In this document: one piece after another, positions 16,435 to 48,838 of the stretch
Numbering within the stretch: the stretch's first letter is position 1
Layout of the letters: every line of letters starts with the position of its first letter
Assembly: GCA_041648335.1 (NCBI GenBank)
Contig: JBAZPG010000003.1
Span: 10,605-74,604, forward strand
Direction: 5' to 3'
Source: Candidatus Micrarchaeia archaeon
GTDB taxonomy: Archaea; Micrarchaeota; Micrarchaeia; Norongarragalinales; Norongarragalinaceae
Length of the DNA stretch: 64,000 nt
Position numbers and translations under genes: made by a program
Notes under the pieces: model-generated
The model's input: the letters and a program-made list of their open reading frames with translations, nothing else
The model's database searches: none
Told to the model about the DNA's origin: nothing

Positions 16435-16455
16435 GAAAAAGGCAGGCAGCCGCGC

Positions 16456-16464: not shown

Positions 16465-16483
16465 CCGCCGAACTAAACGATTC

Positions 16484-17562: not shown

Positions 17563-17622
17563 TTTTCAGTTCACCGTTTTGTTGAATCCAGTTAGTTTTT
17601 TCCCGTATTAAAACGAGCGGGT

Positions 17623-19317: not shown

Positions 19318-19336
19318 GGCGAGTAAAGGCAGCGGG

Positions 19337-19350
19337 TTAATTAATTTAAA
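19337..19350. promoter_or_regulatory. Central palindromic A/T box shared by divergent genes (starts at 19317 and 19369)
   Basis: TTAATTAATTTAAA is centred ~26 nt from both start codons in a 51-bp intergenic region. Confidence 0.45.
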
Positions 19351-19368
19351 CCGAGTTGTTTTGTTTGT

Positions 19369-21052: not shown

Positions 21053-21829
21053 TTACTTATTGAATGGTAGCCTGGCGGTTACCTTCCGCGCTATTCCTTC
21101 AAATTCTGGCAATTCAATCATTACTTTTTCCAAGTCGCGTTTCCAACGCGGTTCCAAGATAGCCATACGTTTTTCAAATGAAGTCGCAGTCAACTCCGCG
21201 GGAATTAATGCAAGCTTTTCTTCAATTAATTTTTTGTTGGGAACTACCATTTGTTCAAGCAAAAAATTGGCATCGTATAAATCTCGCGGTTTTGGTCGGT
21301 TGTATATTGCATGAATCTTTTCTGCAAAAATTTCTTCAAGCTGCATACAGGGCAATTGCGTTTTGGGTAAGGCATACTCGTTTGGATTCTGCACCAACCT
21401 ACTCACAGGCGGCCGCAACACTTGATTTTTACATGCAATTTCTAAATTTATCGAATCTATTTGCGGATATTCGCTTATTTGACTAGTATACTGCAATTTC
21501 AACGCAATATTTTCTGTTGTCCGTTCAAGACGGTTCACTTTTACGAAGAATACTCCGTCAATGACCTTGTTTTCAAATGCTTTTTTGATTTCTTGGTCAT
21601 ACTCGCTTTCAGTGACTAGAGAAAAATCCAAGTCTGAAGAAAATCGAAATTTGGGAAAATAACTTTTTTTAATGCAAGTTCCGCCCTTAAAAACGAGCTT
21701 TTCTGCCAGTTTTGTTTCGGCTATTTTTGAAAGGGCCACCGATAACACGTAATCTTTTTCAGCGTTGCCCAAGCTCATTCTTGTTTTTCGCGCAATTCGT
21801 CTAAACAACTCAATATCGAATTTATTCAT
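21053..21829 (-). CDS. abiEii: AbiEii/AbiGii-family nucleotidyltransferase toxin (DUF1814)
   Basis: FKGGTCIKKSYFPKFRFSSDLDFS matches the NTase motif of AbiEii. 258 aa, AT-rich codon usage, and it directly abuts abiEi (TAAATG junction). Confidence 0.8.
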   Translation of the reverse strand: MNKFDIELFRRIARKTRMSLGNAEKDYVLSVALSKIAETKLAEKLVFKGGTCIKKSYFPKFRFSSDLDFSLVTESEYDQEIKKAFENKVIDGVFFVKVNRLERTTENIALKLQYTSQISEYPQIDSINLEIACKNQVLRPPVSRLVQNPNEYALPKTQLPCMQLEEIFAEKIHAIYNRPKPRDLYDANFLLEQMVVPNKKLIEEKLALIPAELTATSFEKRMAILEPRWKRDLEKVMIELPEFEGIARKVTARLPFNK

Positions 21830-22615
21830 TTACTTCATTTCCTCGTCTAGGACGACGTTTAGTCTGAGCCCATATTTCGAATCAAATCTTCCTTTTGCCG
21901 GAGCGGAGGGATCGAGAAGACGGTAACCTTTGAATTTTTTCTTTTCAAAGTGTTTTAGTGCGTTTTTCAAATGCAAAAACTTTAAACAAAATGTTAATCT
22001 TCGTTCCGTCGCGCTATTTCCCGCCCTATCTGAGAAATATCTGACCGAAGCCCATTTTATTGAACGCGACTCCCGTCTAAGTGCATTACAAATTTCACCC
22101 AGTCCCGCACAATACTTGGGATGAGAAAAGCAGTCAATTACCAGCTTTTCTTTGGTTGCAATCTTAATATTTCCAACGGTTTGGTACCCGCAAAACTTTT
22201 TTTCGGAAATTCTTACGGGCACATAGGTAATTTCTTGAAATTTTTTCTTCGTTCTACTTTTAGTGGTTACCACTTGAATCGTAACAGGTAATTGAGTGGT
22301 CCAGCCATAATATTTTAGGGCAGCCAGAAACGAAATATATCCCTCTGGAAAATATTCGGCGGCCAACGACAATTCGTTCAATGCATAATCCTCTTCCTTC
22401 AAAGGAACTAGGAGATACCGTCCGCGTTTGATTCTCTGAACCCGACCTTTTACAACAAGTTTAGAAAGTGTTTTGCGAACCAAATTTTTTGTGGAATTAG
22501 GGAAAAACGAGTATACCTCGTTTATGTTAAACAATCTATTCTTATTTCTCTCCAAGGTGGAAAGAATTTCAAACTGAAATGCACCGATTCCATTTTTTTT
22601 GTGGTTAATTACCAT
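21830..22615 (-). CDS. abiEi: AbiEi-family antitoxin / transcriptional regulator
   Basis: N-terminal winged helix (FEILSTLERNKNRLFNINEVYSFF...LSKLVVKGRVQRIKRGRYLLVP) plus a C-terminal AbiEi-type domain. It sits upstream of abiEii in the canonical order. Confidence 0.75.
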   Translation of the reverse strand: MVINHKKNGIGAFQFEILSTLERNKNRLFNINEVYSFFPNSTKNLVRKTLSKLVVKGRVQRIKRGRYLLVPLKEEDYALNELSLAAEYFPEGYISFLAALKYYGWTTQLPVTIQVVTTKSRTKKKFQEITYVPVRISEKKFCGYQTVGNIKIATKEKLVIDCFSHPKYCAGLGEICNALRRESRSIKWASVRYFSDRAGNSATERRLTFCLKFLHLKNALKHFEKKKFKGYRLLDPSAPAKGRFDSKYGLRLNVVLDEEMK

Positions 22616-22726: not shown

Positions 22727-23755
22727 TCAAAACCACTTCTTGAGCGTGCCCTGGTTCTGGTCGCGCGGCTGGTTGAACGCCCGGGCGAGCGCCGCGTTAA
22801 CGCGCTCTTCCGCGAAGTCGCGTTCGGAACACATGAACGAAAGCAGGGCGTCGCGGTCGGGCTCCCCCAACGCGGGTATCTCGGCAGGCGCGGCGTTCGG
22901 GTTAAGGAAAAGCGATTCGACTTCCTTGAACGAAGAGTAGTCCTGTCCGGTCTTCGCGCACAATTCCTCCAAATCGCGGCACTCGAGCGCGAGCTTGTAG
23001 CCCTTCTTGGGCCCGATGCCGTGCACGCCCTTGTTGAAATCCGTGCCGCACAACAACGCCACCCACACCAGTCGCTCGCGCGTCACGCCAAGGCGCGCGA
23101 GGTTGGGTTCGAGGAAATACTTTTCGGGGTGCACCTCGACCACCGCGTTCGAACGCGGGAGGCGGCGCCTGCCGGCGAGCGTGAGGTTGCGCACGAGTAT
23201 GGGTGCGCCGAACAGCAAGGCATCGAAGTCCTGGCTCGCTGCCGCGTCCACGGCACCGCGCGCGGCTAAGAAGGCGCATTCGGCTTCGCCTTCGCTGGGC
23301 GCCTGAACGAACGGAATCCCCATCAGGCGCAGCAACTCCTTTGACTCGTCCACCATCTCTCGCGTGAAACGGCTCGTGCGCTGGGCGAAGCGCGCCGCAT
23401 CCTCGATTCGCCCTTCCTCGAGCGCCTTGCGCATCAACTCCTCGGCCTCGGCTTTTTTCTCGGCGCGCTCGGCAATCGTGCGCGCCTTCAACTCGGAGGG
23501 CTTGCCGTCGAACACGTAAACCGGTTGCACGCCCTTCTCGAGGAGCGAACACGAACGGTAAAAGAACCCGCTCAAGTGGCTCGTAACGCGCCCCTTGGCG
23601 TCCGCCAGGGGGGCGCCGTCCGGCCCGCGTATCGTGCTCAGGAACTGGTAGGCGGTGTTGAACGCGTCCACCGCAAGACGGCCGCGGAGCTCCTCGAGGC
23701 GGACGGGCTCGCCTTCCAGCAAATCCTTGAGGTCTTTAGCGCCCAATTTTTTCAC
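22727..23755 (-). CDS. fen: Flap endonuclease 1 (FEN-1)
   Basis: LAVDAFNTAYQFLSTIRGPDGAPLADAKGRVTSHLSGFFYRSCSLLEKGVQPVYVFDGKP is the canonical FEN-1 N domain. 342 aa. Confidence 0.92.
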   Translation of the reverse strand: MKKLGAKDLKDLLEGEPVRLEELRGRLAVDAFNTAYQFLSTIRGPDGAPLADAKGRVTSHLSGFFYRSCSLLEKGVQPVYVFDGKPSELKARTIAERAEKKAEAEELMRKALEEGRIEDAARFAQRTSRFTREMVDESKELLRLMGIPFVQAPSEGEAECAFLAARGAVDAAASQDFDALLFGAPILVRNLTLAGRRRLPRSNAVVEVHPEKYFLEPNLARLGVTRERLVWVALLCGTDFNKGVHGIGPKKGYKLALECRDLEELCAKTGQDYSSFKEVESLFLNPNAAPAEIPALGEPDRDALLSFMCSERDFAEERVNAALARAFNQPRDQNQGTLKKWF

Positions 23756-37059: not shown

Positions 37060-37497
37060 TCAAACGTTTTCCGCTGCGAACGCGCCGACCACGGCGAGTA
37101 TGCCGTCGACTATCGCGCCCATTATCGGAGCGACGATTATCGCGGTGACCGCTGCGCCTGCTGCGAACGCGCCGTAACCGGCGCCGTAACCCGCAGCCAT
37201 CAACTCAGCGGACATCCCGAAGCCCGAGAGAATCCAAATCGCCGAGATTATCCCGCCCACGAACCCGGTGACAACGCCCGCGATTCCGCCCGCGATGGCG
37301 GCGTGCTTGAGCGAGTACTTGTTGTTCTTCACCGCAATCCACCCGATGTATAACGGGATGAGGTAACCGATGAAACCCAACACCGCCAGCATGGGCGCGA
37401 GTATCACGAGGACGCTCAACGCGATTCCCACGAACACCGGTATCTGGACGAGTTTCCAGTATTCGCCGATTTTCTTTCCGCCCACGTCTTTCTTCAT
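37060..37497 (-). CDS. Gly/Ala-rich polytopic membrane protein, hypothetical
   Basis: From the internal ATG (MKKDVGGKKIGEYW...) there are 4-5 hydrophobic helices. GAGGTG lies upstream of this ATG and a TTTAAAA box sits at 37553-37559. Confidence 0.55.
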   Translation of the reverse strand: MKKDVGGKKIGEYWKLVQIPVFVGIALSVLVILAPMLAVLGFIGYLIPLYIGWIAVKNNKYSLKHAAIAGGIAGVVTGFVGGIISAIWILSGFGMSAELMAAGYGAGYGAFAAGAAVTAIIVAPIMGAIVDGILAVVGAFAAENV

Positions 37498-37595
37498 TAG
37501 TTCGCTTGCCAACAAACCCACCTCTTTCTTGAAGCGGGTTTGTTCGCGGCAGTTTAAAACCGTTCCGCGCGCCGCCCAAGCGTGCGGGGAAACCC

Positions 37596-37605
37596 TTTTT
37601 TTAAT
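37596..37605 (+). promoter_or_regulatory. TATA-like box for the minor-pilin operon
   Basis: TTTTTTTAAT is centred ~25 nt upstream of the ATG at 37625. Confidence 0.4.
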
Positions 37606-37624
37606 GCACGGGTTAAGCGTATTC

Positions 37625-38053
37625 ATGCGCGGACAGGCTGCCATTGAATACTTGGTGATAGTGGCGCTGAGCCTCGCGGTCCTCTTGCCGCTGTGGTTCT
37701 ACGTGGACACCAACCGCACGCAAGTAGAGGGACAGCTGCGTTTGGGTTACGCCCAGCAGGCGGTGAACCGTTTGCGCGACGCGGCCGACTTAGTGTACGC
37801 CCAGGGTCCACCCGCCCAGATTTACGTCGAGGTGAACGTGCCGCCCGGAATCGCGAGCGCGAGCGTCTCCGGAAGGGCCATATCCCTGTTCGTGAACTCG
37901 CAGTGGGGTCCGAACGAGGTTTATGCGGTTACAGTTGCGAACGTGACGGGTTCGTTGGAGTCGCTTCCGCGGTTCCCGGGGCCACGCACCATACTCGTGA
38001 AAGCCGAACGGGGTTTCGGTTCGTACTACGTGAACGTCACCGACGGGGTTTAG
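37625..38053 (+). CDS. Pilin-like protein with class III signal peptide (142 aa)
   Basis: MRG/QAAIEYLVIVALSLAVLLPLWFYV: a basic residue-Gly, then QxxxE[YF]L plus ~20 hydrophobic residues (DUF361/class III signal pattern). Confidence 0.75.
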   Translation: MRGQAAIEYLVIVALSLAVLLPLWFYVDTNRTQVEGQLRLGYAQQAVNRLRDAADLVYAQGPPAQIYVEVNVPPGIASASVSGRAISLFVNSQWGPNEVYAVTVANVTGSLESLPRFPGPRTILVKAERGFGSYYVNVTDGV

Positions 38054-38056
38054 GCG

Positions 38057-38449
38057 ATGCGGGGACAGACGTCAATGGAGTTCCTAGCTTTCTTCGGCAT
38101 ACTCCTCGGCATCCTCGTGGTGTTCTCGATTTTCTCGTTTTACAGGAACGCCGAGATGCAGGCGCGCGCCGCGGATGCCGCGGGTTGGAACGTGTGCAAG
38201 CTCGTCGCGGGCGAGTTGAACATTGCAGCCGCGGTGGGCGACGGCTACACGCACTCGTTCTACCTTCCCGCGCGCCTAGAGAACTCGCGCGAGTACCTCG
38301 TGTGGCTGAACTCCGACGAAAAAACAGTGGAGGCCGCTTGGACTGGAGGCGACTGCCTCCTGCCCGTGACCGCGGCTTTCGCGCAAGGCGAATTCCATAC
38401 CGGGCAGAATAGCGTCTCGAACCGCGGCGGGGTGGTGTACGTTGAGTAA
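38057..38449 (+). CDS. Pilin-like protein with class III signal peptide (130 aa)
   Basis: MRG/QTSMEFLAFFGILLGILVVFSIF. It starts 3 nt after the previous gene. Confidence 0.75.
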   Translation: MRGQTSMEFLAFFGILLGILVVFSIFSFYRNAEMQARAADAAGWNVCKLVAGELNIAAAVGDGYTHSFYLPARLENSREYLVWLNSDEKTVEAAWTGGDCLLPVTAAFAQGEFHTGQNSVSNRGGVVYVE

Positions 38450-39572
38450 GCGCGGGCAGACGTTCACCGTGGACTTCATCGCGAGCCTCCTGGTTTTCAT
38501 TGCGATACTCTTGACCGTGAACGCGCTGTGGGCGCACATCCTGAGCGACTCGGAGTACGCGCGCCAGCGGGGCGAGAGCGCCGCGCTCACGGCTGCGATA
38601 GCGGACGGGTTGGTGCGTTCGCCGGGCTCGCCCGAGGATTGGACCGCATCCGACGTGGAATCCGCGGGTTTCGTGGGAAGCGAGGCGCTCGTGCTCGACG
38701 CCCGCAAGCTCTCGGAGTTCCTTAACGCGGATTACGAAACACAGCGCGCCGCGTTATCAACCGGGGGTTACGGGTTCCGCCTCGAATTCTGGAACGCGGA
38801 CGGTCCCGAGTACTCGGGCGTGCTGCGCGAGCCGATAGCGTATTATTCGTACGCCGAAGAGGACTTGCTCCCGCTCCTGGATTCGTCCACGCTGGAATGG
38901 GATTATTATTGGGGCGGCGAAGGGGTGTTTGTCGAACCGGCGCACTCGAGCGAGGGCTTTTTCTACGCGGGCGGGCAGATTGCCGCGCTCAACGTCCTGC
39001 TGGCGAACCAGTCGAATTACACCACAATAATCATAGAAGCCGCGGCGCTCTCGGATGAAGGGCGCGCCGCGCTGGACTTGGAATCACTCCGCGATTTCGT
39101 GGAAACCGGCGGCACCCTGGTATATGTGGGCGACGGGGATGCCGCGGCGCCAGTGATAGAAGAGGGCTTCGCAGCGGAATTCGAGTTCAACGGGGAAGGA
39201 CGCGCGGGCGAGGCAACGCGCTCGCTCCTGCTCTCGAACGCCACCGAGGGCGAAGCCGTCTCAATGCCCGACTTCGGTTGGGCTGCGGCTGCGGAGGGAA
39301 TCGACGCCGCGGTATTCGATTCCGAAAACCCAGGGTACGCGCTCGCCGGCTCGTGGGAGTACGGTGTGGGACGCATTTACTATGTTGCTGATTACGACGC
39401 GGACTTCGCTGCCAACGGCACGTTCAACATCGTGGGCGCTCCGTTGGAGTACGGCTTCGAGCCGTCGGGTGCGGGCGATGTTTTCGTGGTTAACCGGCAG
39501 TGCGCGATAGAGGCGGACGGGGTGCGGCGCTGGGCTGCGCTCACGCTCGTCTTGTGGGAGGCGCGGAGATGA
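38442..39572 (+). CDS. Pilin-like protein (376 aa) with class III-type N-terminus and GATase1/ThuA-like motif
   Basis: TTG start; SKRG/QTFTVDFIASLLVFIAILLTV. Internal LESLRDFVETGGTLVYVGDGDAA. It overlaps the upstream gene by 8 nt. Confidence 0.65.
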   Translation: MSKRGQTFTVDFIASLLVFIAILLTVNALWAHILSDSEYARQRGESAALTAAIADGLVRSPGSPEDWTASDVESAGFVGSEALVLDARKLSEFLNADYETQRAALSTGGYGFRLEFWNADGPEYSGVLREPIAYYSYAEEDLLPLLDSSTLEWDYYWGGEGVFVEPAHSSEGFFYAGGQIAALNVLLANQSNYTTIIIEAAALSDEGRAALDLESLRDFVETGGTLVYVGDGDAAAPVIEEGFAAEFEFNGEGRAGEATRSLLLSNATEGEAVSMPDFGWAAAAEGIDAAVFDSENPGYALAGSWEYGVGRIYYVADYDADFAANGTFNIVGAPLEYGFEPSGAGDVFVVNRQCAIEADGVRRWAALTLVLWEARR

Positions 39573-42500
39573 AGGGGCTCGTCTTCACTCTCGAGGCGCT
39601 CTCGGCGTTGCTGTTGCTGCTTACATTATCGTACGCGCTCTCGCTTTCGACTTCGACGAGCGCCGAACAGGGCTACTCGCACGAGGGTTTGCATACGCTC
39701 GCCCAGGATTCCATCGGCGCGCTCTCCAAGCTGCGCCTCCGCGACGTGCGCCGCGACCCTGCGGTGGCGCGCCTGTTCGAGGACGGCTCGTTCTCAGAGG
39801 CAAACAACAACGACAGCGTCATGGCCGCGCTCGGCTCGCTTTGGGCTACGAACAATACTGGAAACGCGACGCTTGCGCGCGAACTCGCGCAGACGCTGAT
39901 GACGCGGGTGATGCCCTCGCATGTGAACTGGGCGGTCGCATTCGAGGGGGACATAATCTACAACACGAGCGCGCCCGCTCCCGAGCGCTCGCTCGCCGCT
40001 AGCCGGCGCATCGTCTCGGGCGTGAACTCGTCGCAGCCGTCCACGGGATGCGTGGCGCGCGCCTTCCTCCAGAGGATTCGCGGGAAGAACGAGCGCGCCT
40101 ACGCGTTCTTCGGCGGCTTCGTGGGACAGGGGAACATCACCGCCGTGCTCCGCGGGATTTCCGCGGATGCGGCATTCAACAGCCTCGTCGTGGAGTTGAA
40201 TGCGGGGAACGACTTCAACCTCGTGGTGAATGGCTTCGATTGCGGGGAACTCCACCGCGCGGACCCCGCGGACAATTACAGCGTGGACTCCTGGACCGTG
40301 ACCGACGAAGAATGCCTCTCGCAACTTGATGCCACGGCGTCCGAGAACAACGTCTCCCTGAATTTCACGCAAGGCGGCTTGGCCTATGCCTACGTGGGCG
40401 GCGGCTTCGTCGAGGCGGTTTACGAGACCTCGGAGATAACTCCCACGTGGTCTACGATGCAACGCACTTATCTCCCGGGAATCCAGGGGCTCGCGAATTA
40501 TTACGGCTCGTTCTACGTGCCCGGACAGCTCACGGGGATAAACGCAACGCTGCACTTCTACAACAATTACACCTCTTACTTCCGCGTGGGCAACAAGACC
40601 GTCATGCACAACCGCGGCTCGGCGAACGAACAGGTGATATTCATTCCGTACGCGAACTTCTCCGCGAACTTCACTGACGCAGAACTGAGTTCGCGCACCG
40701 TACCCGTGCGCTTCGAGGTGTTCGCGAACGCAACCGGGCAGACGGGTTACGCGGACGTGGTGCTAATCACGGACGTGTCCGGGAGCATGAACTGGAAGAT
40801 GAGCACGGACTACCAGAACGGCGTAATCCGCGCGTGCGACAACCCCGCATTATACGATTCCGACACCCAGCGCTTGAGCGTGGCGAAGTGCGTGGACAAG
40901 AGCTTCGTGCAGGCGATACTCGAGGGCGTGGGCAACCAAATTGCCCTCGTATCGTTCAGCTCGAGCGTCTCCAGTTACACCAACTTCTCCACCGACTACG
41001 ATTACCTCGAATCCGAAATAGACGGCTATACCCAGGGCGGCGGCACCTGCATCGCGTGCGCAATAAACAAGGCGCGCGAACTCCTCGCGAACAGCGCCGC
41101 GAACCGCACGCGTTACATAATCGTGATGAGCGACGGCGTGCCCAACTACCGGAGCACCGAGTTCTGCGGGGAGGACTGGCGCGCGGTTTCAGCGAACGGC
41201 TCCAGCACCGTGCTCGCCGCGGACTACAACGCGATAATCGGGCGGCGCAACGCCACGGGTTGGGCGCTCTCGGATATTTCCAGCGCGTCACTGTACGGCG
41301 TCTCGCTTGCGGCATCGGACAACGCATTCGCAGTCGGCTCGAGCGGAAAAATATACAAGTGGAACGGCGCGGCGTGGGCGCAGAGCACGGACACCGGCTT
41401 GAACACACACTATGCAGTTGATTATTACAACCCGAACGTTGCTTTCGCCGCCGGCTCCACGGGAAAAGTGTTCAGGTGGAACGGGGCGGCTTGGGCCGAA
41501 AGCACGGATACCGGAGACAACGTGCACTACGCCGTGGACGTGCTGAACTCGAGCTGGGTTTTCACCGTTGGCTCCTCGGGAAAAATATTCAGGTGGAACG
41601 GAGCGGCGTGGGCGGAATCAACCGATACGGGCTCGAACACATTCTACGGGGTGGCAGTACACAACGGAACCCTGGGGTTCGCAGTGGGCGACTCGGGAAA
41701 GATTTACAGGTGGAACGGCGCGGCGTGGGCGCAGAACATAGACACCGGAAGCAACACACACTACGCGGTGGCAGCGTACAACGGCACGCTCGCGTTCGCC
41801 GTGGGCTCCTCTGGAATCATATACAAATGGAACGGCGCGGCGTGGGCGCAGGACGTGAGCCCGACTGGCGCGGCGCTGCGCGGAATCGCGTTCCAGAACG
41901 GCTCCGCAGCCAAGGCGGTGGGCAGCAACGTAATCCTGTCGTGGAACGGCTCCGGTTGGAGCGTGGAGCGCTCGTATGCGTGCGACCAGGGCAACTCCTC
42001 CACGGGCGTTAGCTGCAGCGACAACGACGACTGCTCGCTTTCGACGTCGTGTCCCTCGCGGAACGCGAACTATTCCTCGTGCTGGGCACACCAGGAATAC
42101 GGCGCCGTGGTGTACGCGGTGGGCTTCGGCCCCGTGGCATCGTGCGCATTCGCCAACGCGACGCTGAACGCCATAGCCCAGTGCGGGAACGGCACTTACT
42201 TCGCGAGCAGCGACGCGGCCGAACTAGCGGACTTCTACCGGAGCCTGGCGCGCACCATAGTCACGGAATCGAACGCCTCCCAGGTGCTAAGCATTTCCGG
42301 CTCCATCAATTCCACGCTATTCCCCGACTCGTTCATAGAGTACTCGTTCATTCCCGATGAGCCGGACTATGATTACGGGGACTTGAGCGTGACCGTGGAG
42401 AACCCGCCGCTTCCGTCGTGCTCGGGTTCGGTTTACTTCCCGACGCAAATCAAGCTCGACTCCGTACGCGTCACCTCGTACTCGGGGGACAAGTGGACTG

Positions 42501-43102
42501 ACTTGGTGCGCGTGCGTCCCGAAGGCGGGGCGTGGGTCGAGGCGTTCAACCTCTCGAAATACGCGATGGATTACGAGGGCTTGGGCGACCCGTTCGCCGT
42601 GCAGTTCAACACCTCGCTCATCACGACCGGCGGTTACAGCGAGTTCAGCGTGCGCACCGGGAGCGCGTACGGCAACGCGAGCGCGGAGTGCCCGTCCGAC
42701 GACCGCGTGATTTACACCGGGCGCCTGCGCGCCCAAGTGAATTATTCCGGCGTCTACCCGGTGTGCGCCTCGCGCAACGCCACGGTGTACTACGACCTGG
42801 ATTACGACAACGTGGCGGACGGTTCCATCGGGTTGACCATCGGGAGTGCGGGCCTCCCGTCCGCGGGCGAAGAGTATGTTGACGTTGCAGAACTCGAGCC
42901 GGGAACGAACGCGGTCGACGACGCGCTGGTGCGCCTCTTGGACGCGCTCAACTTCCTGGGCGACGGGGACGAACCGTCGGGCTCGGCCGCGAACCCGATT
43001 GACTTGAAGATAGGCGAATCAATCAACCTCACGGTGATAGTCGGCCAGGGAGTCCCGTTCATGTGGGGTCCCTCGGAAGTGTCGGTGATGGTGTGGAACT
43101 GA
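39569..43102 (+). CDS. Giant (1177 aa) pilin-fused adhesin: prepilin-like N-terminus, vWA domain interrupted by a 7-blade repeat propeller, C-terminal beta-rich region
   Basis: MKG/LVFTLEALSALLLLLTLSY at the N-terminus. MIDAS motif DVVLITDVSGSM, then IALVSFSS, GGTCIACAI and RYIIVMSDG. Seven ~39-aa repeats (GSSGKIYKWNGAAWAQSTDTG.NTHYAV) follow, and the vWA resumes with VVYAVGFGP...FASSDAAELADFYRSL. ATGA overlap with the upstream gene. Confidence 0.75.
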   Translation: MKGLVFTLEALSALLLLLTLSYALSLSTSTSAEQGYSHEGLHTLAQDSIGALSKLRLRDVRRDPAVARLFEDGSFSEANNNDSVMAALGSLWATNNTGNATLARELAQTLMTRVMPSHVNWAVAFEGDIIYNTSAPAPERSLAASRRIVSGVNSSQPSTGCVARAFLQRIRGKNERAYAFFGGFVGQGNITAVLRGISADAAFNSLVVELNAGNDFNLVVNGFDCGELHRADPADNYSVDSWTVTDEECLSQLDATASENNVSLNFTQGGLAYAYVGGGFVEAVYETSEITPTWSTMQRTYLPGIQGLANYYGSFYVPGQLTGINATLHFYNNYTSYFRVGNKTVMHNRGSANEQVIFIPYANFSANFTDAELSSRTVPVRFEVFANATGQTGYADVVLITDVSGSMNWKMSTDYQNGVIRACDNPALYDSDTQRLSVAKCVDKSFVQAILEGVGNQIALVSFSSSVSSYTNFSTDYDYLESEIDGYTQGGGTCIACAINKARELLANSAANRTRYIIVMSDGVPNYRSTEFCGEDWRAVSANGSSTVLAADYNAIIGRRNATGWALSDISSASLYGVSLAASDNAFAVGSSGKIYKWNGAAWAQSTDTGLNTHYAVDYYNPNVAFAAGSTGKVFRWNGAAWAESTDTGDNVHYAVDVLNSSWVFTVGSSGKIFRWNGAAWAESTDTGSNTFYGVAVHNGTLGFAVGDSGKIYRWNGAAWAQNIDTGSNTHYAVAAYNGTLAFAVGSSGIIYKWNGAAWAQDVSPTGAALRGIAFQNGSAAKAVGSNVILSWNGSGWSVERSYACDQGNSSTGVSCSDNDDCSLSTSCPSRNANYSSCWAHQEYGAVVYAVGFGPVASCAFANATLNAIAQCGNGTYFASSDAAELADFYRSLARTIVTESNASQVLSISGSINSTLFPDSFIEYSFIPDEPDYDYGDLSVTVENPPLPSCSGSVYFPTQIKLDSVRVTSYSGDKWTDLVRVRPEGGAWVEAFNLSKYAMDYEGLGDPFAVQFNTSLITTGGYSEFSVRTGSAYGNASAECPSDDRVIYTGRLRAQVNYSGVYPVCASRNATVYYDLDYDNVADGSIGLTIGSAGLPSAGEEYVDVAELEPGTNAVDDALVRLLDALNFLGDGDEPSGSAANPIDLKIGESINLTVIVGQGVPFMWGPSEVSVMVWN
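41245..41970 (+). repeat. Tandem 117-bp coding repeats (7 copies; blade repeats)
   Basis: The core GTGGAACGGnGCGGCnTGGGC recurs at 41359, 41476, 41593, 41710 and 41827 (exact 117-bp period). Degenerate copies lie near 41245 and 41941. Confidence 0.85.
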
Positions 43103-44049
43103 AAGGCGTGCTGTATTCTATAATCACGCTTGCACTCATTGCGCCCGTGGTCATGCTCGCGCTTTTCTACGCGCAATACTCCGCGGTAGAGAGCCGCTTC
43201 CTGGTGGCGGGCGTGGTGGGCGAAGAGCTCGCGAACTACGCTGAATCGATTGACGCGGACTTCCCCCGCGCGCTTTACGTGAGCAGTTACGCTGCGGTAG
43301 TGGCGTGCGTGAACCACGCGGTGTCCGGCTCCGAGGTGGACGACGCGGCGGCACGTATAGGCGAGCTGGCGGTGAACGGCTCGTTTGACGGGGTTCCGTC
43401 CGAAATAATGGGGGGAAGCCAGACGAACAACACGCTCTCGGCGTGGGTCGAGCGCCTCGAAGAGAAGGGCGGGGCGTACGGGCTCGCGGTGGACGCGAAC
43501 CTGGATTACTACAACGCCACGCCGTTGAACCACCGTTACCTCCTGGTGAACGCGAACATTTCGGTGAACGCGTCCTCGCCCGGCTACGGAATCGGTTTTG
43601 TGCGCGTTTATTCCGCGCAAGCCGTGGTGGATTTGGAGGGTTTGGAGGACCCGCTCCTCCCGTTGAGGACAATGGGCGCAGCCCAGCGCGCGATGCACTT
43701 CAATACCACGAATGTTTGGGGCGTCGCGGCGTTCGACGACGCGGCACAAAACGGGTGGTACTGGCCGTCCGCGGAGGGCGCGAGCTTCCTGGACCGCCTC
43801 GAGGGGCGCGACTACACGAGCGAACGCTACGCAGCCCAATCCGACCAGGTAATCGGAATCCAATCCATAGTTGACGTGGGCTACCTCGTGGGACAAGAGC
43901 TGCCCGCGGACTTGAATAAGAGCGTCGTGGATAACCTGTACTTCAACAACACCGCGCCTTCGGCCTGGTCCGTGGCGGGTTCGGGGCTGTGGTGGGCGTG
44001 GCTCGACACTGAAACCGCACAGGCGTTGGGTGTGGAACTCGAAAACTAG
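43093..44049 (+). CDS. Pilin-like protein (about 318 aa) with prepilin-type N-terminus
   Basis: The GTG at 43093 gives (M)ELKG/VLYSIITLALIAPVVMLALFY. It overlaps the adhesin gene end by 10 nt. The exact start is uncertain. Confidence 0.6.
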   Translation: MELKGVLYSIITLALIAPVVMLALFYAQYSAVESRFLVAGVVGEELANYAESIDADFPRALYVSSYAAVVACVNHAVSGSEVDDAAARIGELAVNGSFDGVPSEIMGGSQTNNTLSAWVERLEEKGGAYGLAVDANLDYYNATPLNHRYLLVNANISVNASSPGYGIGFVRVYSAQAVVDLEGLEDPLLPLRTMGAAQRAMHFNTTNVWGVAAFDDAAQNGWYWPSAEGASFLDRLEGRDYTSERYAAQSDQVIGIQSIVDVGYLVGQELPADLNKSVVDNLYFNNTAPSAWSVAGSGLWWAWLDTETAQALGVELEN

Positions 44050-44050
44050 G

Positions 44051-44058
44051 TTTTAAAA
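44051..44058 (+). promoter_or_regulatory. TATA-like box for the assembly-machinery unit
   Basis: TTTTAAAA lies ~32 nt upstream of the ATG at 44090, in the only gap (40 nt) inside the locus before the ATPase unit. Confidence 0.4.
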
Positions 44059-44089
44059 CTCGCGTCGCTAATGGGTGTGGATAAAACAT

Positions 44090-44869
44090 ATGGTCAAAGA
44101 GGACTTGGAAACCGTAATCGACCGCCTCTTGGATTACGTGCGCACCAACAAACTGTGCACCTTGAACCAGGCCGCGAAGGCGCTCGCGCTCGGCCCCTAC
44201 CAAGTCGAGAAACTCGCCCTCTTACTCGAGGAAAGCGAGCTCATGGAAGTCCAGTACACCCTGCTCGGCGTCAAGCTCGCGCCCCGCTTCCCCGAAAAGG
44301 AGGAAGAGAAGAAGAAGGCGGAGGTAAAGGCGAAGGCGAGCCTCATACTCCAGCAGACCCAGGCGCTCGAAAAGGAAGTCTCGACCTCCGAGCACCTCCT
44401 CGAGTTCATGGAACACGACATCACCCGCCGGCTGGACGTCGCGCGCTCGCTCTTGCAGCAGCTCGACCGCAAGAAGGATTACTCGCAGGCGGAACTGGCG
44501 TTCGTCAAGAAGGAAACCGAGGGCTTGTCCAAGCAGATGACCGCGTTCAGCGCGCGCCTCGCCGAACTGAAGGTGCGCGAGGAGTCGTTCGGCAAGGACG
44601 TTGATAAATTCGAGGCGCGCCTCAGCCGCGTCAAGACGAACGAAAAACGCGTGCTCACCGCGTTGGAGTCGCTGCTGTCCAAGCTCCCGAAACTCTCGCT
44701 TCCAAAATCAGGCAAACCCGCGCAGGCAAAGCCGGCGCACAACGCGGGCACGACCAAGCATGCTGCGCACCACAAGGCGGGCAAAATGAAGTTGCCCAAG
44801 CTCGACGGCGGCAAGGCGATCAAAAAGTTCTTCGCCGGCTTCGGCAAAAAGGGAGGCAAGCGCAAGTGA
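44090..44869 (+). CDS. Winged-helix + coiled-coil + Lys-rich-tail protein, pilus-locus accessory component of unknown function
   Basis: N-terminus VIDRLLDYVRTNKLCTLNQAAKALALGPYQVEKLALLLEESELMEV (wHTH-like). Long heptad-like central region. Tail KLPKLDGGKAIKKFFAGFGKKGGKRK. The stop overlaps the ATPase start (GTGA). Confidence 0.6.
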   Translation: MVKEDLETVIDRLLDYVRTNKLCTLNQAAKALALGPYQVEKLALLLEESELMEVQYTLLGVKLAPRFPEKEEEKKKAEVKAKASLILQQTQALEKEVSTSEHLLEFMEHDITRRLDVARSLLQQLDRKKDYSQAELAFVKKETEGLSKQMTAFSARLAELKVREESFGKDVDKFEARLSRVKTNEKRVLTALESLLSKLPKLSLPKSGKPAQAKPAHNAGTTKHAAHHKAGKMKLPKLDGGKAIKKFFAGFGKKGGKRK

Positions 44870-46365
44870 AGGTCCTCGAGAAATACACTGTGTCGAACGA
44901 GGGCGTGATCGCGGACGTCACGGTCGCCGAGCGCGAGGACGAATTCGTCAATTCTTACGAGTTGAGCCACACCAAGGTCAAAGAGGCGACGCGCATCGCG
45001 CTCAACTACCTCAAGGAGAAGATAATCGAGAGCATCCAGATCAAGGTCTCCGAGATGCTCGACCCGCGCGAGGCGGACAAGATACGCAAGCGCCTCGTCG
45101 AGCGCGCCCACGAGCTCATCCACAGCGAGCTCAGCGGTTTGAGCGAGGAAGAGGAAGGCGTGCTCGTGGGGCGCCTCATACAGGAGATGCTCGGGCTCGG
45201 CGAACTCGAGCTCGTGCTCGCGGACGAGAACCTCGAGGAAATCGTGGTAAACTCGGCGGACGAGCCGGTGTGGGTGTACCACAAGAAGCACGGCTGGCTC
45301 AAGACGAACGTGCGTATCCCCTCCGAAGAGCAGATTCACAATTACGCCTCGATAATCGGCAGGCGGGTCGGCAAGCAAATCACGAACCTGGACCCCCTCA
45401 TGGATGCCCATCTCTTGTCGGGTAACCGCGTGAACGCCACGCTCTTCCCCATCTCGACGAAGGGGAACAGCATCACGATACGCAAGTTCTCGAAGGACCC
45501 GTGGACCATCGTGAACATGATAGACAACAAGACGCTCAATTCCGAGGCGGCCGCGTTGTTCTGGCTGTGCGTACAGTACGAGATGAACGTGCTCGTGGCA
45601 GGCGGCACGGCATCCGGCAAAACATCGTTCTTGAACGCACTCCTCGCCTTCACCCCCCCGAACCAGCGCGTGATATCCATTGAGGACACGCGCGAGCTCG
45701 TGCTCCCGGATTTCCTGCACTGGACGCCGATGACCACGCGCCAGCCGAACCCCGAGGGCAAGGGCGAGATAACCATGCTCGACTTGATGGTGAACTCGCT
45801 GCGTATGCGCCCCGACCGCATCGTGCTCGGCGAAATCCGCCGTCAGCGCGAGGCCGAGGTGTTATTCGAGGCGATGCACACCGGGCACTCGGTTTACGCG
45901 ACGCTGCACGCGGACAACGCGCAGCGCGTGAAGAGCCGCCTGATAAGCCCGCCAATCGAGCTCCCCGAGAGCATGCTCGGCGCATTGCACTTGATAGTCG
46001 TCCAGTACCGCCAGCGCCGCACGGGAATCCGTCGCACCTTCGAAATCGCGGAAATGATGCCCACGAACGACGGCGTCTGCCTGAATCCGATTTACCGTTG
46101 GGACGCCCGCAAGGACAAGCTCGAGCAGACCGGCAAGTTCAAGCGCATCACCGAGGAGCTCGAGCTGCACGCGGGGTTCACCCACAAGGAGTTCCTCGCC
46201 GACTTACACGAGAAGGAGGCCGCGTTGAACTACCTGCGCGCGAGCAAGGTGGGGAACGTGAACGAGCTCGGCAGCGTCATAGGCACCTACTACCGCTCGC
46301 CCGAGAAAGTCATGGACGCGGTGAAGAAGAAGACGCCGTTGGCGAAACTGCTGGGTAGGACATGA
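44866..46365 (+). CDS. Type IV pilus/secretion ATPase (PilB/FlaI/TadA/VirB11 superfamily)
   Basis: Walker A LVAGGTASGKTSFLNALL, Walker B/Asp box RVISIEDTREL, and DRIVLGEIR...HTGHSVYATLHA (His box). 499 aa. Confidence 0.88.
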   Translation: MKVLEKYTVSNEGVIADVTVAEREDEFVNSYELSHTKVKEATRIALNYLKEKIIESIQIKVSEMLDPREADKIRKRLVERAHELIHSELSGLSEEEEGVLVGRLIQEMLGLGELELVLADENLEEIVVNSADEPVWVYHKKHGWLKTNVRIPSEEQIHNYASIIGRRVGKQITNLDPLMDAHLLSGNRVNATLFPISTKGNSITIRKFSKDPWTIVNMIDNKTLNSEAAALFWLCVQYEMNVLVAGGTASGKTSFLNALLAFTPPNQRVISIEDTRELVLPDFLHWTPMTTRQPNPEGKGEITMLDLMVNSLRMRPDRIVLGEIRRQREAEVLFEAMHTGHSVYATLHADNAQRVKSRLISPPIELPESMLGALHLIVVQYRQRRTGIRRTFEIAEMMPTNDGVCLNPIYRWDARKDKLEQTGKFKRITEELELHAGFTHKEFLADLHEKEAALNYLRASKVGNVNELGSVIGTYYRSPEKVMDAVKKKTPLAKLLGRT

Positions 46366-47228
46366 TAATACCGTTCAGCTTCGCGCCCCCAAAGCTCGTG
46401 ACAACCGCGGCGCGCAACTTCAAGAACGTGGGCGCTTTCCTCGCCTCCCTCAACCCGAACCTCAAGCAGGACTTGATACAGGCGGAGTACGGCGTGCACG
46501 CGCGCGACTACTGCGCCATCGCGTTCGTCGCCTCGGTCACGAACATGCTGGTAATCAGCCTGATGATACTCGTGATAGGGCTGGCGGCGCGCATTCCCCT
46601 CGTGGCCCCCGCGGTGTTCGGCGGGCTCATCGTCGCGTTCGCCTCGTTCTTCACGATAACCTACTATCCACGCATCATCTCCACCCGTCGGGGGCGCGAA
46701 CTCGATGAACAACTCATCCCCGCCCTCCGCCAGCTCCTCATCGAACTCAAGTCGGGCGTCCCACTGTTCAACGCCATGGCGAGCGTCTCGAACGACTACG
46801 GCGAGGTGTCCGAGGAGTTCAAGAAGATAGTCAAGAGGATAAACGGCGGAACGCGCGACCTCGACGCCCTCGCCGAGGCAACGACCGCGAATCCGTCCCT
46901 CCAGTTCCGAAAGGTGCTCTGGCAGATTTCAAATGCCCTGAAGGTGGGGTCGGACGTGGGGCGCGTGCTCGAATCCCTCGTGCGCGACTTGACGCTCGAA
47001 CGCATGGAACAGATAAAGCGCTACGGACAGGAGCTCTCGCCGTGGACCATGATTTACATGATGACCGCGGTAATCCTCCCGAGCCTGGGCATCACCATGC
47101 TCATGGTGATAATGTCGTTCCTGAACGTAGCGGTGCCGTCCATCGTCCTCCCGCTCGTCATAGTGTTCCTGGTTGGTTTCCAGTTGTTCTTCATGAACTT
47201 CGTGTCGACGAGGAGGCCGAAAGTCTGA
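46362..47228 (+). CDS. T2SS-F domain membrane platform protein 1 (TadB/TadC/FlaJ-like)
   Basis: TM helices flank a cytoplasmic T2SSF-like domain (LIPALRQLLIELKSGVPLFNAMASVSNDYGEVSEEFKKIVKRINGG...). ATGA overlap with the ATPase gene. Confidence 0.8.
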   Translation: MIIPFSFAPPKLVTTAARNFKNVGAFLASLNPNLKQDLIQAEYGVHARDYCAIAFVASVTNMLVISLMILVIGLAARIPLVAPAVFGGLIVAFASFFTITYYPRIISTRRGRELDEQLIPALRQLLIELKSGVPLFNAMASVSNDYGEVSEEFKKIVKRINGGTRDLDALAEATTANPSLQFRKVLWQISNALKVGSDVGRVLESLVRDLTLERMEQIKRYGQELSPWTMIYMMTAVILPSLGITMLMVIMSFLNVAVPSIVLPLVIVFLVGFQLFFMNFVSTRRPKV

Positions 47229-47229
47229 A

Positions 47230-48264
47230 ATGTTCGAACGCGCCTACCAACAGATTTCGTCGCTATTCCCGCGGGGCTTCGTGAACCACGTGGACAAGCT
47301 AATGTCCCAAGGCGGCTTCGAGGAAGTCCAACCCCGCCTGTTCATCGGCTTCTCCGTGTTCTTCTCGGCGTGCATCGCGGTAATCGCGTTCTTCTTCACG
47401 CCCTTCCTCACCGACAACCCGATATTCCATTACGCCGCCGCACCCGCGGCTTTCGCCTTGACGCTCAGCCTACTCTACATGTACCTGCTCTCGACCGCGG
47501 ACACGCGCGCCCGCCGCATCGAGGAAGTCCTTCCAGACATGCTCCAGATAATCTCGGCGAACATGCGCGCGGGGATGACAATGGAGAACGCCATCTGGAG
47601 CGCGGCGCGCCCCGAGTTCGGGCCACTACGCGACGAGATAAAGCGCGTGAGCGCGGACACCTTCGGAGGCACGCCCATACAGGACACCCTCCTCGAGATG
47701 ACTACCCGGGTGCGCTCGATCATACTCGAGCGCGCGGTCCGCCTCATAGTCGAGGGCATAAAACTCGGCGGCGAGATGAGCCAGCTCCTCGAGGAAGTCG
47801 CCGAGGACATAAAGAGCAACTACCAGTTGCAGAACCAGATCGCCACATCCACGCTGATGTACGTGATATTCATCGTGTTCGCCTCCGCGCTCGCGGCGCC
47901 GCTGCTGTTCGCGGTGAGCGTGTTCTACTCCGAGATGAACGAACAGATACTCGCAAAGCAAACCGAAAGCGGCGGCAACGGGATGGATATGGAGAGCATG
48001 GCGATGCAGTCGGGAATGGGCGGCTTGCCGGGAATGGGTTCGGGCACCGCGAAGTCGTCCATCAGTTCGCAGGACTTCTGGTGGTTCGCCATAGCCGCGC
48101 TCACGGTGACCAACTTCCTGGGCGCACTCATTTTGTCCACCGTACGCAACGGGCACGCCTTCCGCGGATTGCGTTACGCCCCGTTGATGGCGCTCGGGGC
48201 AATAGCCGTTTTCGTGCTTGCCAACGCAGCCATACGCACGGCTTTCGGCTCCATGCTATTCTAA
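47230..48264 (+). CDS. T2SS-F domain membrane platform protein 2 (TadC/FlaJ-like)
   Basis: VLPDMLQIISANMRAGMTMENAIWSAARPEFGPLRDEIKRVSADTFGGTPIQDTL plus flanking TM helices. It starts 1 nt after the previous stop. Confidence 0.8.
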   Translation: MFERAYQQISSLFPRGFVNHVDKLMSQGGFEEVQPRLFIGFSVFFSACIAVIAFFFTPFLTDNPIFHYAAAPAAFALTLSLLYMYLLSTADTRARRIEEVLPDMLQIISANMRAGMTMENAIWSAARPEFGPLRDEIKRVSADTFGGTPIQDTLLEMTTRVRSIILERAVRLIVEGIKLGGEMSQLLEEVAEDIKSNYQLQNQIATSTLMYVIFIVFASALAAPLLFAVSVFYSEMNEQILAKQTESGGNGMDMESMAMQSGMGGLPGMGSGTAKSSISSQDFWWFAIAALTVTNFLGALILSTVRNGHAFRGLRYAPLMALGAIAVFVLANAAIRTAFGSMLF

Positions 48265-48267
48265 ACC

Positions 48268-48277
48268 TTTAAAAATA
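48268..48277 (+). promoter_or_regulatory. TATA box dedicated to the candidate major pilin gene
   Basis: TTTAAAAATA sits immediately after the platform gene stop. A GGTGAT Shine-Dalgarno-like motif at 48327-48332 lies 9 nt before the ATG at 48342. Confidence 0.5.
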
Positions 48278-48341
48278 GGTGACGGGTAATGGAGAACGGG
48301 CGTTGGTTTTCGTAATAACCCGCAAAGGTGATGGAATAAAT

Positions 48342-48746
48342 ATGAAGAAAGGTCAAAGCGCGTTAGAGTACCTGGTCACTTACGGCTGGGCGATATTGGC
48401 TATCGTAATCATAGCCGCGGTATTATGGTACTTCGGCGTGTTCAACCCGTCCAAGTGGACGGAGAGCAAGCAGTGCGGCGGGCTCGCCTCGTTCTCGTGC
48501 GTGGACTACGTGGTCAACGCGACGAACGGCGTGACGCTCTCGCTCGGCAACAAGGTCGGGCGCTCCGTGATCGTTTACTGCACTGGAAACACACCAGTAA
48601 ACACCACGCTCGGCTTGACAACACCCGTTTCGTGCACGGTGCAGGGCACCGCGTCTGGCTCGAACCAGCTGAACTTCGACGTCGTCTACTACGACGCCGC
48701 ATCCGGCCTCGAGCACACGGACACGGGTTTCGTGAGCGCGGGTTAG
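48342..48746 (+). CDS. Type IV pilin-like protein, candidate major pilin (134 aa)
   Basis: MKKG/QSALEYLVTYGWAILAIVIIAAVLWYF (class III signal, Q at +1, E at +5). The small beta-rich body carries N-x-S/T sequons (NATN, NTTL). It has its own promoter and terminator. Confidence 0.8.
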   Translation: MKKGQSALEYLVTYGWAILAIVIIAAVLWYFGVFNPSKWTESKQCGGLASFSCVDYVVNATNGVTLSLGNKVGRSVIVYCTGNTPVNTTLGLTTPVSCTVQGTASGSNQLNFDVVYYDAASGLEHTDTGFVSAG

Positions 48747-48757
48747 ATTCGCAAAGC

Positions 48758-48800
48758 GGGGGCGCAAGCCCCCAACCCTTATTTTTTCTTTCCTTCTTTT
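48758..48800 (+). terminator. GC hairpin plus T-tract downstream of the pilin gene
   Basis: GGGGGC-GCAA-GCCCCC (48758-48773) is followed by CTTATTTTTTCTTTCCTTCTTTTCT. Confidence 0.6.
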
Positions 48801-48838
48801 CTCAAAGTTTATTAAACCCGCGAGCGTAGCAACCCTTC

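Follow-up and report, generated by a model that had tools for sequence, protein, structure and literature searches.

Ten genes, here called g1 to g10, lie one behind the other on the plus strand at positions 37625-48746 of a 64-kb stretch of DNA from a Candidatus Micrarchaeia archaeon (contig JBAZPG010000003.1; the whole stretch is referred to below as the window), and they probably make up a type IV pilus gene cluster. The gene limits were taken from the open reading frame (ORF) listing and from start-codon mapping. Two candidate minor pilins of 142 and 130 amino acids, g1 (37625-38053) and g2 (38057-38449), are followed by g3 (38442-39572), a prepilin-type protein of 376 amino acids with a TTG start, by g4 (39569-43102), a candidate pilin-anchored adhesin of 1177 amino acids, and by g5 (43093-44049), a prepilin-type protein of 318 amino acids read from a GTG start. 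The junctions between these five genes consist of a gap of 3 nucleotides (nt) and then overlaps of 8, 4 and 10 nt, and a 40-nt gap precedes g6 (44090-44869), which encodes a predicted cytoplasmic accessory protein of 259 amino acids when counted from the ATG at 44090. Next come g7 (44866-46365), coding for a pilus assembly ATPase of 499 amino acids from the T2SSE/archaeal secretion ATPase family, the platform protein genes g8 (46362-47228) and g9 (47230-48264), each with one T2SSF domain, and g10 (48342-48746), which encodes a probable major pilin with a precursor of 134 amino acids and a mature form of 130. Here the genes overlap by 4 nt at each of the first two junctions, g8 and g9 are 1 nt apart, and 77 nt lie ahead of g10. 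A preliminary description of this DNA had listed ten co-directional genes with the same gap and overlap lengths, in agreement with our mapping. In contrast, the g6 start that it implied, GTG at 44075, probably lies 15 nt upstream of the true one; the ATG at 44090 is favoured because all orthologues and the database entry P0121 start with MVKEDLETV.

Class III signals were searched with a FlaFind-like rule (K/R and then G/A/S no later than residue 13, with a hydrophobic stretch free of charged residues after it), which was run from every possible start codon of the 151 window ORFs having at least 80 amino acids and a GC content at third codon positions (GC3) of at least 0.65. Seven of the 151 passed, six of them being g1-g5 and g10. 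Among the 141 ORFs outside the ten-gene locus, the only one to pass was an 85-amino-acid ORF antisense to the CTP synthase gene, and the large surface proteins encoded elsewhere in the window presented ordinary Sec or lipoprotein signals. All six prepilin N-termini quoted in the preliminary description, which had itself proposed a check of this kind, were therefore present and recognised by the rule. The signals were also conserved in orthologues drawn from 84 related loci. Q occupies +1 in four of the six prepilins (g1, g2, g3 and g10), of which all but g3 carry a full G/XXXXEY-type motif. The g1 signal, MRG/QAAIEYL (Q+1, E+5; the slash marks the predicted cleavage site), gave a sub-threshold match to the Pfam Class_IIIsignal model (E 0.0065), and 27 of the 30 g1 orthologues with a detected signal kept both Q+1 and E+5. 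Similarly, MRG/QTSMEFL of g2 matched the same model below threshold, and its orthologues with a detected signal had Q+1 in 13 and E+5 in 15 out of 16. The g3 signal reads MSKRG/QTFTVDF (Q+1, D+6), with Q+1 and an acidic residue at +6 maintained in the orthologues, which are found at lengths from about 155 to 400 amino acids; the C-terminal extension of g3 showed a weak DUF4350 match. In g4 the signal is MKG/LVFTLEAL (E+6), and its orthologues present K-[GA], a hydrophobic residue at +1 and D/E at +6. The MELKG/VLYSIITL signal of g5 has no acidic residue near the N-terminus, as is also the case for its orthologues, and K/R followed by G/A/S was found in 25 of the 26 orthologues with a detected signal, the remaining one having D at -2; no known domain was found in g5 with Pfam or NCBIfam, the profile collections used for all family assignments. 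These motifs suggest that the six predicted prepilins would be cleaved after K/R-G/A/S.

The g10 signal, MKKG/QSALEYLVTYGWAIL, was highly conserved. Among its 41 orthologues with a detected signal, Q+1 was present in 40 and E+5 in 40, and most of them read [KR][GAS]/Q-x-A-x-E-[YF]-L-M-T-Y-G-W-A at the N-terminus. These proteins ranged from 109 to 187 amino acids and were encoded as tandem duplicates in seven relatives. By analogy with other type IV filaments, g10 is likely the major pilin, since it combines a promoter-like box of its own with an N-terminus of extreme conservation and with frequent tandem duplication, as a filament-forming subunit would.

The largest prepilin-type protein, g4, matched the Pfam VWA_2 family (E 4.6e-13), and its AlphaFold model had a mean predicted local distance difference test score (pLDDT) of 85 across the 1177 residues. 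In the model, an N-terminal hydrophobic helix is followed by a helical domain, beta-sandwiches, a VWA domain split by a propeller and C-terminal beta domains. Specifically, the VWA domain (about residues 395-530 and 828-900) is interrupted by a seven-bladed, Ycf48-like beta-propeller at 536-802. The top Foldseek match of g4 was Ycf48 (E 3.5e-12), and g4 homologues carry PF14870 (PSII_BNR); one of them, from Ca. Norongarragalina meridionalis, was 53% identical. PilY1 was considered as a structural match and rejected, as Foldseek returned only generic seven-bladed propellers (Ycf48, WD40). The Pfam, AlphaFold and Foldseek results fit the giant adhesin with a pilin-type N-terminus that had been proposed here, and g4 may thus be described as a candidate pilin-anchored adhesin, with a domain architecture predicted by the model and a role suggested by analogy. 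Bacterial PilY1 has VWA and propeller as its two modules, both of which in g4 are fused to a pilin N-terminus, and bacterial TadG presents a VWA module, as g4 does.

Two single-domain proteins occupy the place of the platform. Both g8 (E 8.7e-19) and g9 (E 1.2e-14) matched Pfam T2SSF, and they are homologous to each other (BLASTP E 4.5e-10). On the UpsF model, g8 aligned to positions 32-247 and g9 to positions 249-433. The top BLASTP match of g8 was residues 103-245 of Haloferax mediterranei PilC, which correspond to its N-terminal T2SSF domain (E 6e-9), while g9 matched TadB from Arthrobacter (E 1.8e-9) and Azospirillum (E 1e-5) and the C-terminal half of haloarchaeal PilC (E 0.005). These alignments suggest that g8 and g9 are the equivalents of the N-terminal half and of the C-terminal half (TadB type), respectively, of two-domain archaeal platform proteins, and the claim that the platform is split into two genes was borne out. 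Platform fission of this pattern has been reported in Epd-like and Tad systems (Denise et al., PMC6668835).

The ATPase g7 belongs to the T2SSE family (Pfam E 9e-33), so that, next to two T2SSF proteins, the proposed combination of a PilB/FlaI-type ATPase with two separate platform proteins is confirmed. Its Walker A motif, GGTASGKTS, and residues E323, H338, H341 and H348 were invariant in 17 g7 orthologues, several of which also showed faint PilB3_C matches. Makarova, Koonin and Albers (2016, PMC4858521) divided the secretion ATPases into four clades and noted that clade 1 loci, like many of clade 2, have two tadC genes; the supplement of that survey has no Micrarchaeum entries. When g7 was compared with solved structures, Archaeoglobus fulgidus afGspE (PDB 2OAP) scored best with 251 bits, followed by FlaI (205) and CpaF (183), and the NCBIfam FlaI model, which ranked above the TadA model, gave 286 bits against a cut-off of 550. 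These raw rankings would make g7 a clade 2 or clade 3 ATPase; we rejected that assignment, given that the bits per aligned residue were equal for the three structures and that the tree described below contradicts it. The high phmmer score of afGspE arises because its alignment is longer, nearly full length and including the C-terminal helical region. Identity to every reference was 30-36%, with 31% for afGspE and 36% for CpaF on shared columns.

The ATPase alignment included g7 and 27 relatives, almost all labelled DPANN, together with afGspE, FlaI, CpaF, three haloarchaeal ATPases and three bacterial CpaF proteins, these last two groups being taken from plasmids. A subset of 19 sequences (ten DPANN and nine references) was bootstrapped by neighbour joining with 100 replicates over 328 ungapped columns. 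The DPANN ATPases and the CpaF proteins each formed a clade with 100% support, afGspE grouped with the haloarchaeal ATPases at 91%, and a split separating afGspE, the haloarchaeal proteins and FlaI from the DPANN and CpaF proteins was recovered in 100 out of 100 replicates. Because that split is fully supported, g7 is not a FlaI and falls outside the archaellum and haloarchaeal pilus clades, on the side that contains Tad; as far as this alignment goes, clades 2 and 3 are excluded. The preliminary description had called the locus Epd/Tad-like. The position on the CpaF side of the split, the g9-TadB match and the Q+1 and G/XXXXEY-type pilins are compatible with that label and stop short of proving it, so that an Epd/Tad-like affinity is plausible, in a tree whose references were afGspE, FlaI, CpaF and haloarchaeal ATPases. 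As a separate observation, among the ATPase homologues P0024, P0046, P0055, P0062 and P0104-P0109 some proteins had 677-687 amino acids and carried an intein (PF14890), and one was labelled Marsarchaeota.

The stop codon of g6 overlaps the start of the ATPase gene (GTGA), which couples g6 translationally to the ATPase. Its AlphaFold model presents a winged helix at residues 11-70 (pLDDT 85-90), two long helices arranged as a coiled-coil hairpin and a disordered K/R-rich tail, in line with the winged-helix/coiled-coil protein that had been predicted. Foldseek gave generic winged-helix domains only, at E values of about 2e-3 and with ESCRT-II as the top match, and found no specific family; likewise, Pfam searches with g6 and ten of its orthologues yielded only sub-threshold helix-turn-helix matches. 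A g6 orthologue was located directly upstream of the ATPase gene in 27 of the 84 loci, belonging to several DPANN phyla. A short amphipathic motif was present in the tail of many orthologues (AIKKFFAGFGKK in the window, KGLFGGLFGRLRGKK in locus L010 and NPLKRLFGKHGKK in locus L015). Across the K/R-rich C-terminal tails of the family (44780-44869 in the window, and in L010, L015, L018, L019, L011 and L012), the amphipathic motif recurred and the rest of the tail was not conserved. We take this motif to resemble the membrane-targeting amphipathic helices of the MinD/FtsA type. From these features, we infer that g6 may associate with the membrane and serve the motor as a scaffold or regulator.

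A+T runs of 8 nt or longer were found at 37596, 44051 and 48268, where TATA-like boxes had been proposed, and these positions fall in exactly the three gaps of the locus able to hold a promoter. The run TTTTTTTAAT (37596-37605, plus strand), 20-29 nt upstream of the g1 ATG, is a putative promoter for g1-g5, whose mRNA would then be leaderless or nearly so. A second TATA-like run, TTTTAAAA (44051-44058, plus strand), lies 32-39 nt upstream of the g6 ATG and is a putative g6-g9 promoter, and the box TTTAAAAATA (48268-48277, plus strand) could act as the promoter of g10. This last gene also has a Shine-Dalgarno-like motif, GGTGATGG (48327-48334, plus strand), which ends 7 nt upstream of its ATG, and it is followed by a terminator-like element (48758-48805, plus strand) composed of the hairpin GGGGGC-GCAA-GCCCCC with a GNRA loop (48758-48773) and then a T-rich tract; both presumably serve the functions that their names imply, and both had been predicted for g10. 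The rearrangements seen in relatives fit the proposed division into g1-g5, g6-g9 and g10 as separate units. Specifically, the g1-g5 block was inverted relative to g6 in five relatives (L014, L044, L056, L060 and L076), which is consistent with the putative independent promoter ahead of g6, and g10 was displaced or oppositely oriented in L022, L028, L048, L051, L073 and L076.

More than 7,600 relatives of g7 were found. The closest, 57-82% identical, were labelled Micrarchaeota, Micrarchaeia, Norongarragalinales or Burarchaeum. These labels, together with the Ca. Norongarragalina meridionalis homologue of g4, place the window in the Micrarchaeota (DPANN). A contig whose ATPase was 82% identical carried the same ten genes between the same flanking genes, and a 1.3-Mb contig with a 68% identical ATPase had the same ten genes with different flanks. 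A scan with one genome per GTDB species recovered 80 loci at an ATPase identity of at least 49%, labelled Micrarchaeota, Aenigmatarchaeota, Woesearchaeota, Iainarchaeum, Nanohaloarchaeota, Parvarchaeota and Nanoarchaeota, so that g7 orthologues were 49-82% identical across DPANN. Synteny was then read through the homologue loci by tblastn with the ten window proteins. The full order (g1-g5, g6, ATPase, platform, platform, g10) was present in seven loci (L001, L003, L006, L008, L015, L018 and L079), including one labelled Aenigmatarchaeota (L018) and one labelled Woesearchaeota (L079), and most of it in many others, such as L013 and L067. The ATPase gene followed by two platform genes was found in most loci, across DPANN phyla. 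The recurrence of the same order across these loci indicates a conserved DPANN operon, not a peculiarity of one genome. In some Micrarchaeota, a second, paralogous locus with an ATPase gene and two platform genes was also observed, as seen from L009 and L052 (from the same metagenome-assembled genome, SRP062349_co5_86), L020, L022, L025, L029 and L032, with ATPases 49-54% identical; in several of them, such as L020, L025 and L029, 1-2 kb of extra sequence separated the ATPase gene from the first platform gene. These paralogous loci may correspond to the two systems reported in the micrarchaeon Mia14, described below.

A transmembrane-count and GxGD screen and Pfam scans of the large and membrane proteins revealed no candidate A24 prepilin peptidase in the window, in which the only unassigned proteins with several transmembrane segments were a DUF2070, a DUF2207 and a small MamF-like protein, none with the size of such a peptidase. 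None was evident in the 84 related loci with the same transmembrane-count and GxGD screen, and phmmer with the Azospirillum CpaA peptidase found nothing in the window or in those loci, in a search that is insensitive across domains. The preliminary description was therefore right that the window has no PibD/EppA-type peptidase; this absence is not an anomaly. The single FlaK-like peptidase of Mia14 (MIA14_0570) is encoded far from both pilus loci of that genome (Golyshina et al. 2017, PMC5498576), so that the lack of a peptidase gene near the locus is normal, and most archaea with a secretion ATPase have at least one A24 peptidase (Makarova et al., PMC4858521). The single GxGD match, in a related locus (L025, 20574-21398), was rejected as an A24 peptidase by its YD, GTGD and PAL motifs. 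It encodes a presenilin/signal-peptide-peptidase-like membrane protease and follows the paralogous ATPase locus at a distance of about 9 kb on the downstream side.

Altogether, the ATPase, the platform and the class III signals support the type IV pilus-like locus of the preliminary description, and we estimate at roughly 70% the probability that these ten genes, known here from their sequences alone, encode the full structural and motor set, minus the signal peptidase, of an adhesive type IV pilus of the split-platform kind that recurs in DPANN archaea. In such a system, the six precursors would enter the membrane and an A24 peptidase encoded elsewhere in the genome would cut them after the K/R-G/A/S motifs that they display. 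A hexamer of g7, by the activity of its family, would dock on the platform formed by g8 (N-terminal half) and g9 (C-terminal half, TadB type) and drive the extraction and polymerisation of pilins. By analogy with bacterial minor pilins and PilY1, TadG or modular pilins, g1, g2, g3 and g5 could constitute a priming or tip complex bearing g4, below which the separately transcribed g10 would polymerise as the major pilin. The cytoplasmic g6 would act as a scaffold or regulator of the motor, in the position held by TadZ, FlaH or ArlX in related machines. The most likely role of the filament is the attachment to surfaces or host cells by a reduced, probably symbiotic archaeon of the Micrarchaeota. 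Several points weigh against this interpretation. The locus and the 64-kb window are without a prepilin peptidase; g10 has no Pfam match, and its role as the major pilin, like that of g1-g5 as a tip complex, is assigned by analogy; only fold, position and tail composition speak for the role of g6; and the ATPase tree was built by neighbour joining on 328 columns, with afGspE, FlaI and CpaF references transcribed from PDB alignments and a reference set without Epd, Aap, Ups or subsystem 4A/clade 4 sequences.

Other functions could be served by a similar set of genes. The pilus or pseudopilus might take up DNA, as a nucleotide source or for recombination, with g6 handling DNA in the cytoplasm, where its winged-helix fold and K/R-rich tail would suit such a task. 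Epd-type pilus genes, which the split platform and the Q+1/E+5 pilins of this locus resemble, are reported to be needed for natural transformation in Methanococcus maripaludis (PMC10133366). However, no DNA translocase or ComEC/ComEA-like protein was found in the locus or in the flanks of the syntenic locus L001, winged helices often serve as protein-protein modules too (ESCRT-II being the top Foldseek match of g6), and the largest component, g4, is predicted to be made of protein-interaction modules, VWA and propeller, which fit adhesion. A competence function is accordingly judged improbable. We regard with similar scepticism the idea that no long filament is formed and that a short pseudopilus or bindosome-like assembly anchors and displays g3, g4 and g5 at the cell surface. 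Large size (318-1177 amino acids) and non-pilin domains are indeed features of three of the six prepilin-type proteins, and archaeal type IV filaments functionalised by class III-signal binding proteins have been proposed to be widespread (bioRxiv 10.64898/2026.04.22.720090); yet none of the six contains a substrate-binding-protein domain according to Pfam, and the small g10, with its promoter-like box, conserved N-terminus and tandem duplication, resembles the major subunit of a filament.

An archaellum or another rotary motility filament was refuted by the tests that we ran, even though the FlaI model was the best NCBIfam match of g7 and the JGI annotation labels many g7 orthologues as FlaI. 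The score was about half the cut-off of that model, FlaI was separated from the DPANN clade in every bootstrap replicate, and Pfam and NCBIfam found no archaellin, FlaH, FlaF or FlaG family among the locus proteins, nor was a FlaJ-type single platform gene detected with Pfam. Moreover, the syntenic flanks in L001 and L003 contain housekeeping genes only. The statements that archaellin, FlaH, FlaF and FlaG features are missing and that the locus is not an archaellum consequently hold. An attachment pilus is thus the reading that we retain. A more ambitious version of it, in which the operon would be a distinct DPANN-wide pilus subtype and the principal host-attachment organelle of DPANN symbionts, with an ATPase outside the four Makarova clades beside the Tad/Epd lineage and with g6 as an undescribed motor scaffold replacing TadZ/FlaH, is unlikely in our opinion.

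DPANN archaea are ultrasmall and mostly host-dependent, and they account for a large share of archaeal diversity. To our knowledge, little is understood about the ways in which they reach and retain their hosts. The operon is an obvious candidate for a host-attachment role analogous to that of the pili of ultrasmall Saccharibacteria, in which experiments have demonstrated that type IV pili drive episymbiosis (PMC9894109, PMC11623550). Since Micrarchaeota share the gene order with genomes labelled Aenigmatarchaeota and Woesearchaeota, what is learned from one cultivated DPANN archaeon would apply to many lineages. The main interest of the locus therefore lies in providing a well-defined and widely conserved target for studies of DPANN-host attachment, with g10 as a filament marker, g4 as a candidate host-binding adhesin and g6 as an unstudied motor partner. 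In addition, an archaeal origin has been proposed for bacterial Tad pili (PMC6668835), a question to which the split platform and the Flp-like motif of the pilins are relevant.

The neighbourhood of the locus presented other features. A gene for a small membrane protein with four transmembrane segments (37060-37644, minus strand) is divergent from g1, and its counterpart at the same place in L001 has a MamF_MmsF match; its true start is probably further downstream, because the predicted ORF overlaps the start of g1. Positions 225-19386 hold a cluster of very large surface proteins with Sec signals, a second candidate cell-surface or host-interaction region. It includes a large beta-helix/NosD surface protein (225-4304) and two surface proteins of 1297 and 1187 amino acids without a Pfam match (5896-9789 and 12871-16434), among which lie the DUF2070 (9904-12204) and DUF2207 (17623-19386) membrane proteins. 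An AbiEii toxin/AbiEi antitoxin pair (21053-22615, minus strand; Pfam E 1.2e-35 and 1.8e-5) had a GC3 of 0.38-0.39, compared with about 0.8 for the genes of this genome, and lay in the one stretch of the window with a low GC content (0.495). A defence or toxin-antitoxin island gained by horizontal transfer is the probable explanation. Finally, ARAGORN called a 95-nt tRNA-Gln(CTG) at 23545-23639 (minus strand), inside a FEN-1/XPG gene (22727-23755), which Rfam did not confirm; this is a false positive or else a tRNA of an unusual kind that may contain an intron.

Comparison with known systems separates the locus from the archaellum, whose set of FlaI equivalog, single FlaJ, FlaH, FlaF, FlaG and FlaB archaellin differs from the genes found here. 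A likeness to afGspE and the haloarchaeal PilB-type ATPases (System 2) is that afGspE is the best-scoring solved structure for g7. In contrast, System 2 has a single two-domain platform gene (674-701 amino acids in the fetched haloarchaeal loci), which is split here; the fetched haloarchaeal ATPases are 833-989 amino acids long versus 499 for g7; and g7 falls outside the group that they form with afGspE. Subsystem 4A has DPANN variants in which two platform proteins occur together with a pilin and an adhesin of the PilY-like type (bioRxiv 10.64898/2026.04.22.720090). The 4A accessory genes are located downstream of the platform gene, whereas five of the six prepilin genes are here upstream of the ATPase gene, and the structural matches of g4 were generic propellers, not PilY1.

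The locus also resembles in part the bacterial Tad/Flp system (type IVc), as represented by the Azospirillum brasilense p2 locus (L091). In both, an ATPase gene precedes two single-domain platform genes, and several pseudopilins accompany a VWA-containing pilin-like protein (TadG and g4). Moreover, g9 matched TadB, the best-supported split leaves CpaF and the DPANN ATPases on one side, and g10 and g1 have a Flp-like G/XXXXEY cleavage-site motif. Unlike the Tad/Flp system, the locus lacks a secretin, CpaB, CpaD and TadD, which is what one expects of an archaeon, and it contains neither a peptidase nor a TadZ/CpaE ParA-type ATPase; the winged-helix/coiled-coil g6 adjoins the ATPase instead. The order of the platform genes, N-terminal half and then C-terminal half (TadB type), is the reverse of tadB-tadC, g10 is about twice as long as Flp (about 50-60 amino acids), and g7, about 30-36% identical to CpaF, belongs to a separate clade.

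System 1, or Epd, known from M. maripaludis (clade 1, PMC4858521), likewise has a pair of adjacent platform genes, each encoding one T2SSF domain, together with five or more minor prepilins, a large adhesin-like prepilin and a major pilin in its own transcription unit, as is putatively the case for g10. The DUF361/EppA-type motif is present in part of the locus prepilins, with Q+1 in four and E+5 in three of the six, g4 and g5 having a hydrophobic +1 residue. The differences are that in M. maripaludis the ATPase and platform genes sit apart from the pilin cluster, that the Epd major pilin (arCOG06620) has about 70 amino acids and no globular domain compared with the 130 of mature g10, and that Epd loci carry DUF2341 adhesins, a FleN/MinD ATPase and an EppA with nine transmembrane segments, none of which is in this locus; the rest of the window and the syntenic loci L001 and L003 likewise contained neither the EppA peptidase nor the FleN/MinD ATPase.

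Published counterparts also come from DPANN genomes. Mia14 (Ca. Mancarchaeum acidiphilum), also of the Micrarchaeota, has two type IV pilus systems, one of them with an ATPase and two TadC genes (MIA14_0170, 0172 and 0173), and the key components of both are common to many Micrarchaea (PMC5498576). DPANN islands with FlaI, TadC, TadB and unrecognisable pilins have also been reported (Makarova et al. 2019, PMC6393860), and System 1, with two platform genes, has been placed in DPANN (Sivabalasarma and Albers 2026, bioRxiv 10.64898/2026.04.22.720090). Mia14 and the DPANN islands share with our locus runs of class III-signal proteins left hypothetical by standard annotation. The likeness to Mia14 is stated from gene annotations, not from sequences, and the published tables do not contain the ten-gene order, a g6-type protein or an adhesin with a propeller inside its VWA domain; nor, in the readable parts of these three papers and of the 2016 survey of Makarova, Koonin and Albers, does any text spell out that order, the g6 family or such an adhesin. 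In the literature we found no DPANN pilus of this type that had been characterised experimentally. The preliminary description had held that the gene set matched no archaeal pilus operon that could be named. This view was not sustained, given that the same ten-gene order recurs in Micrarchaeota and beyond and that two-platform DPANN pilus loci with unrecognised pilins already appear in these surveys. The locus is a well-preserved example of a kind of DPANN pilus that has already been catalogued, not a new kind of system.

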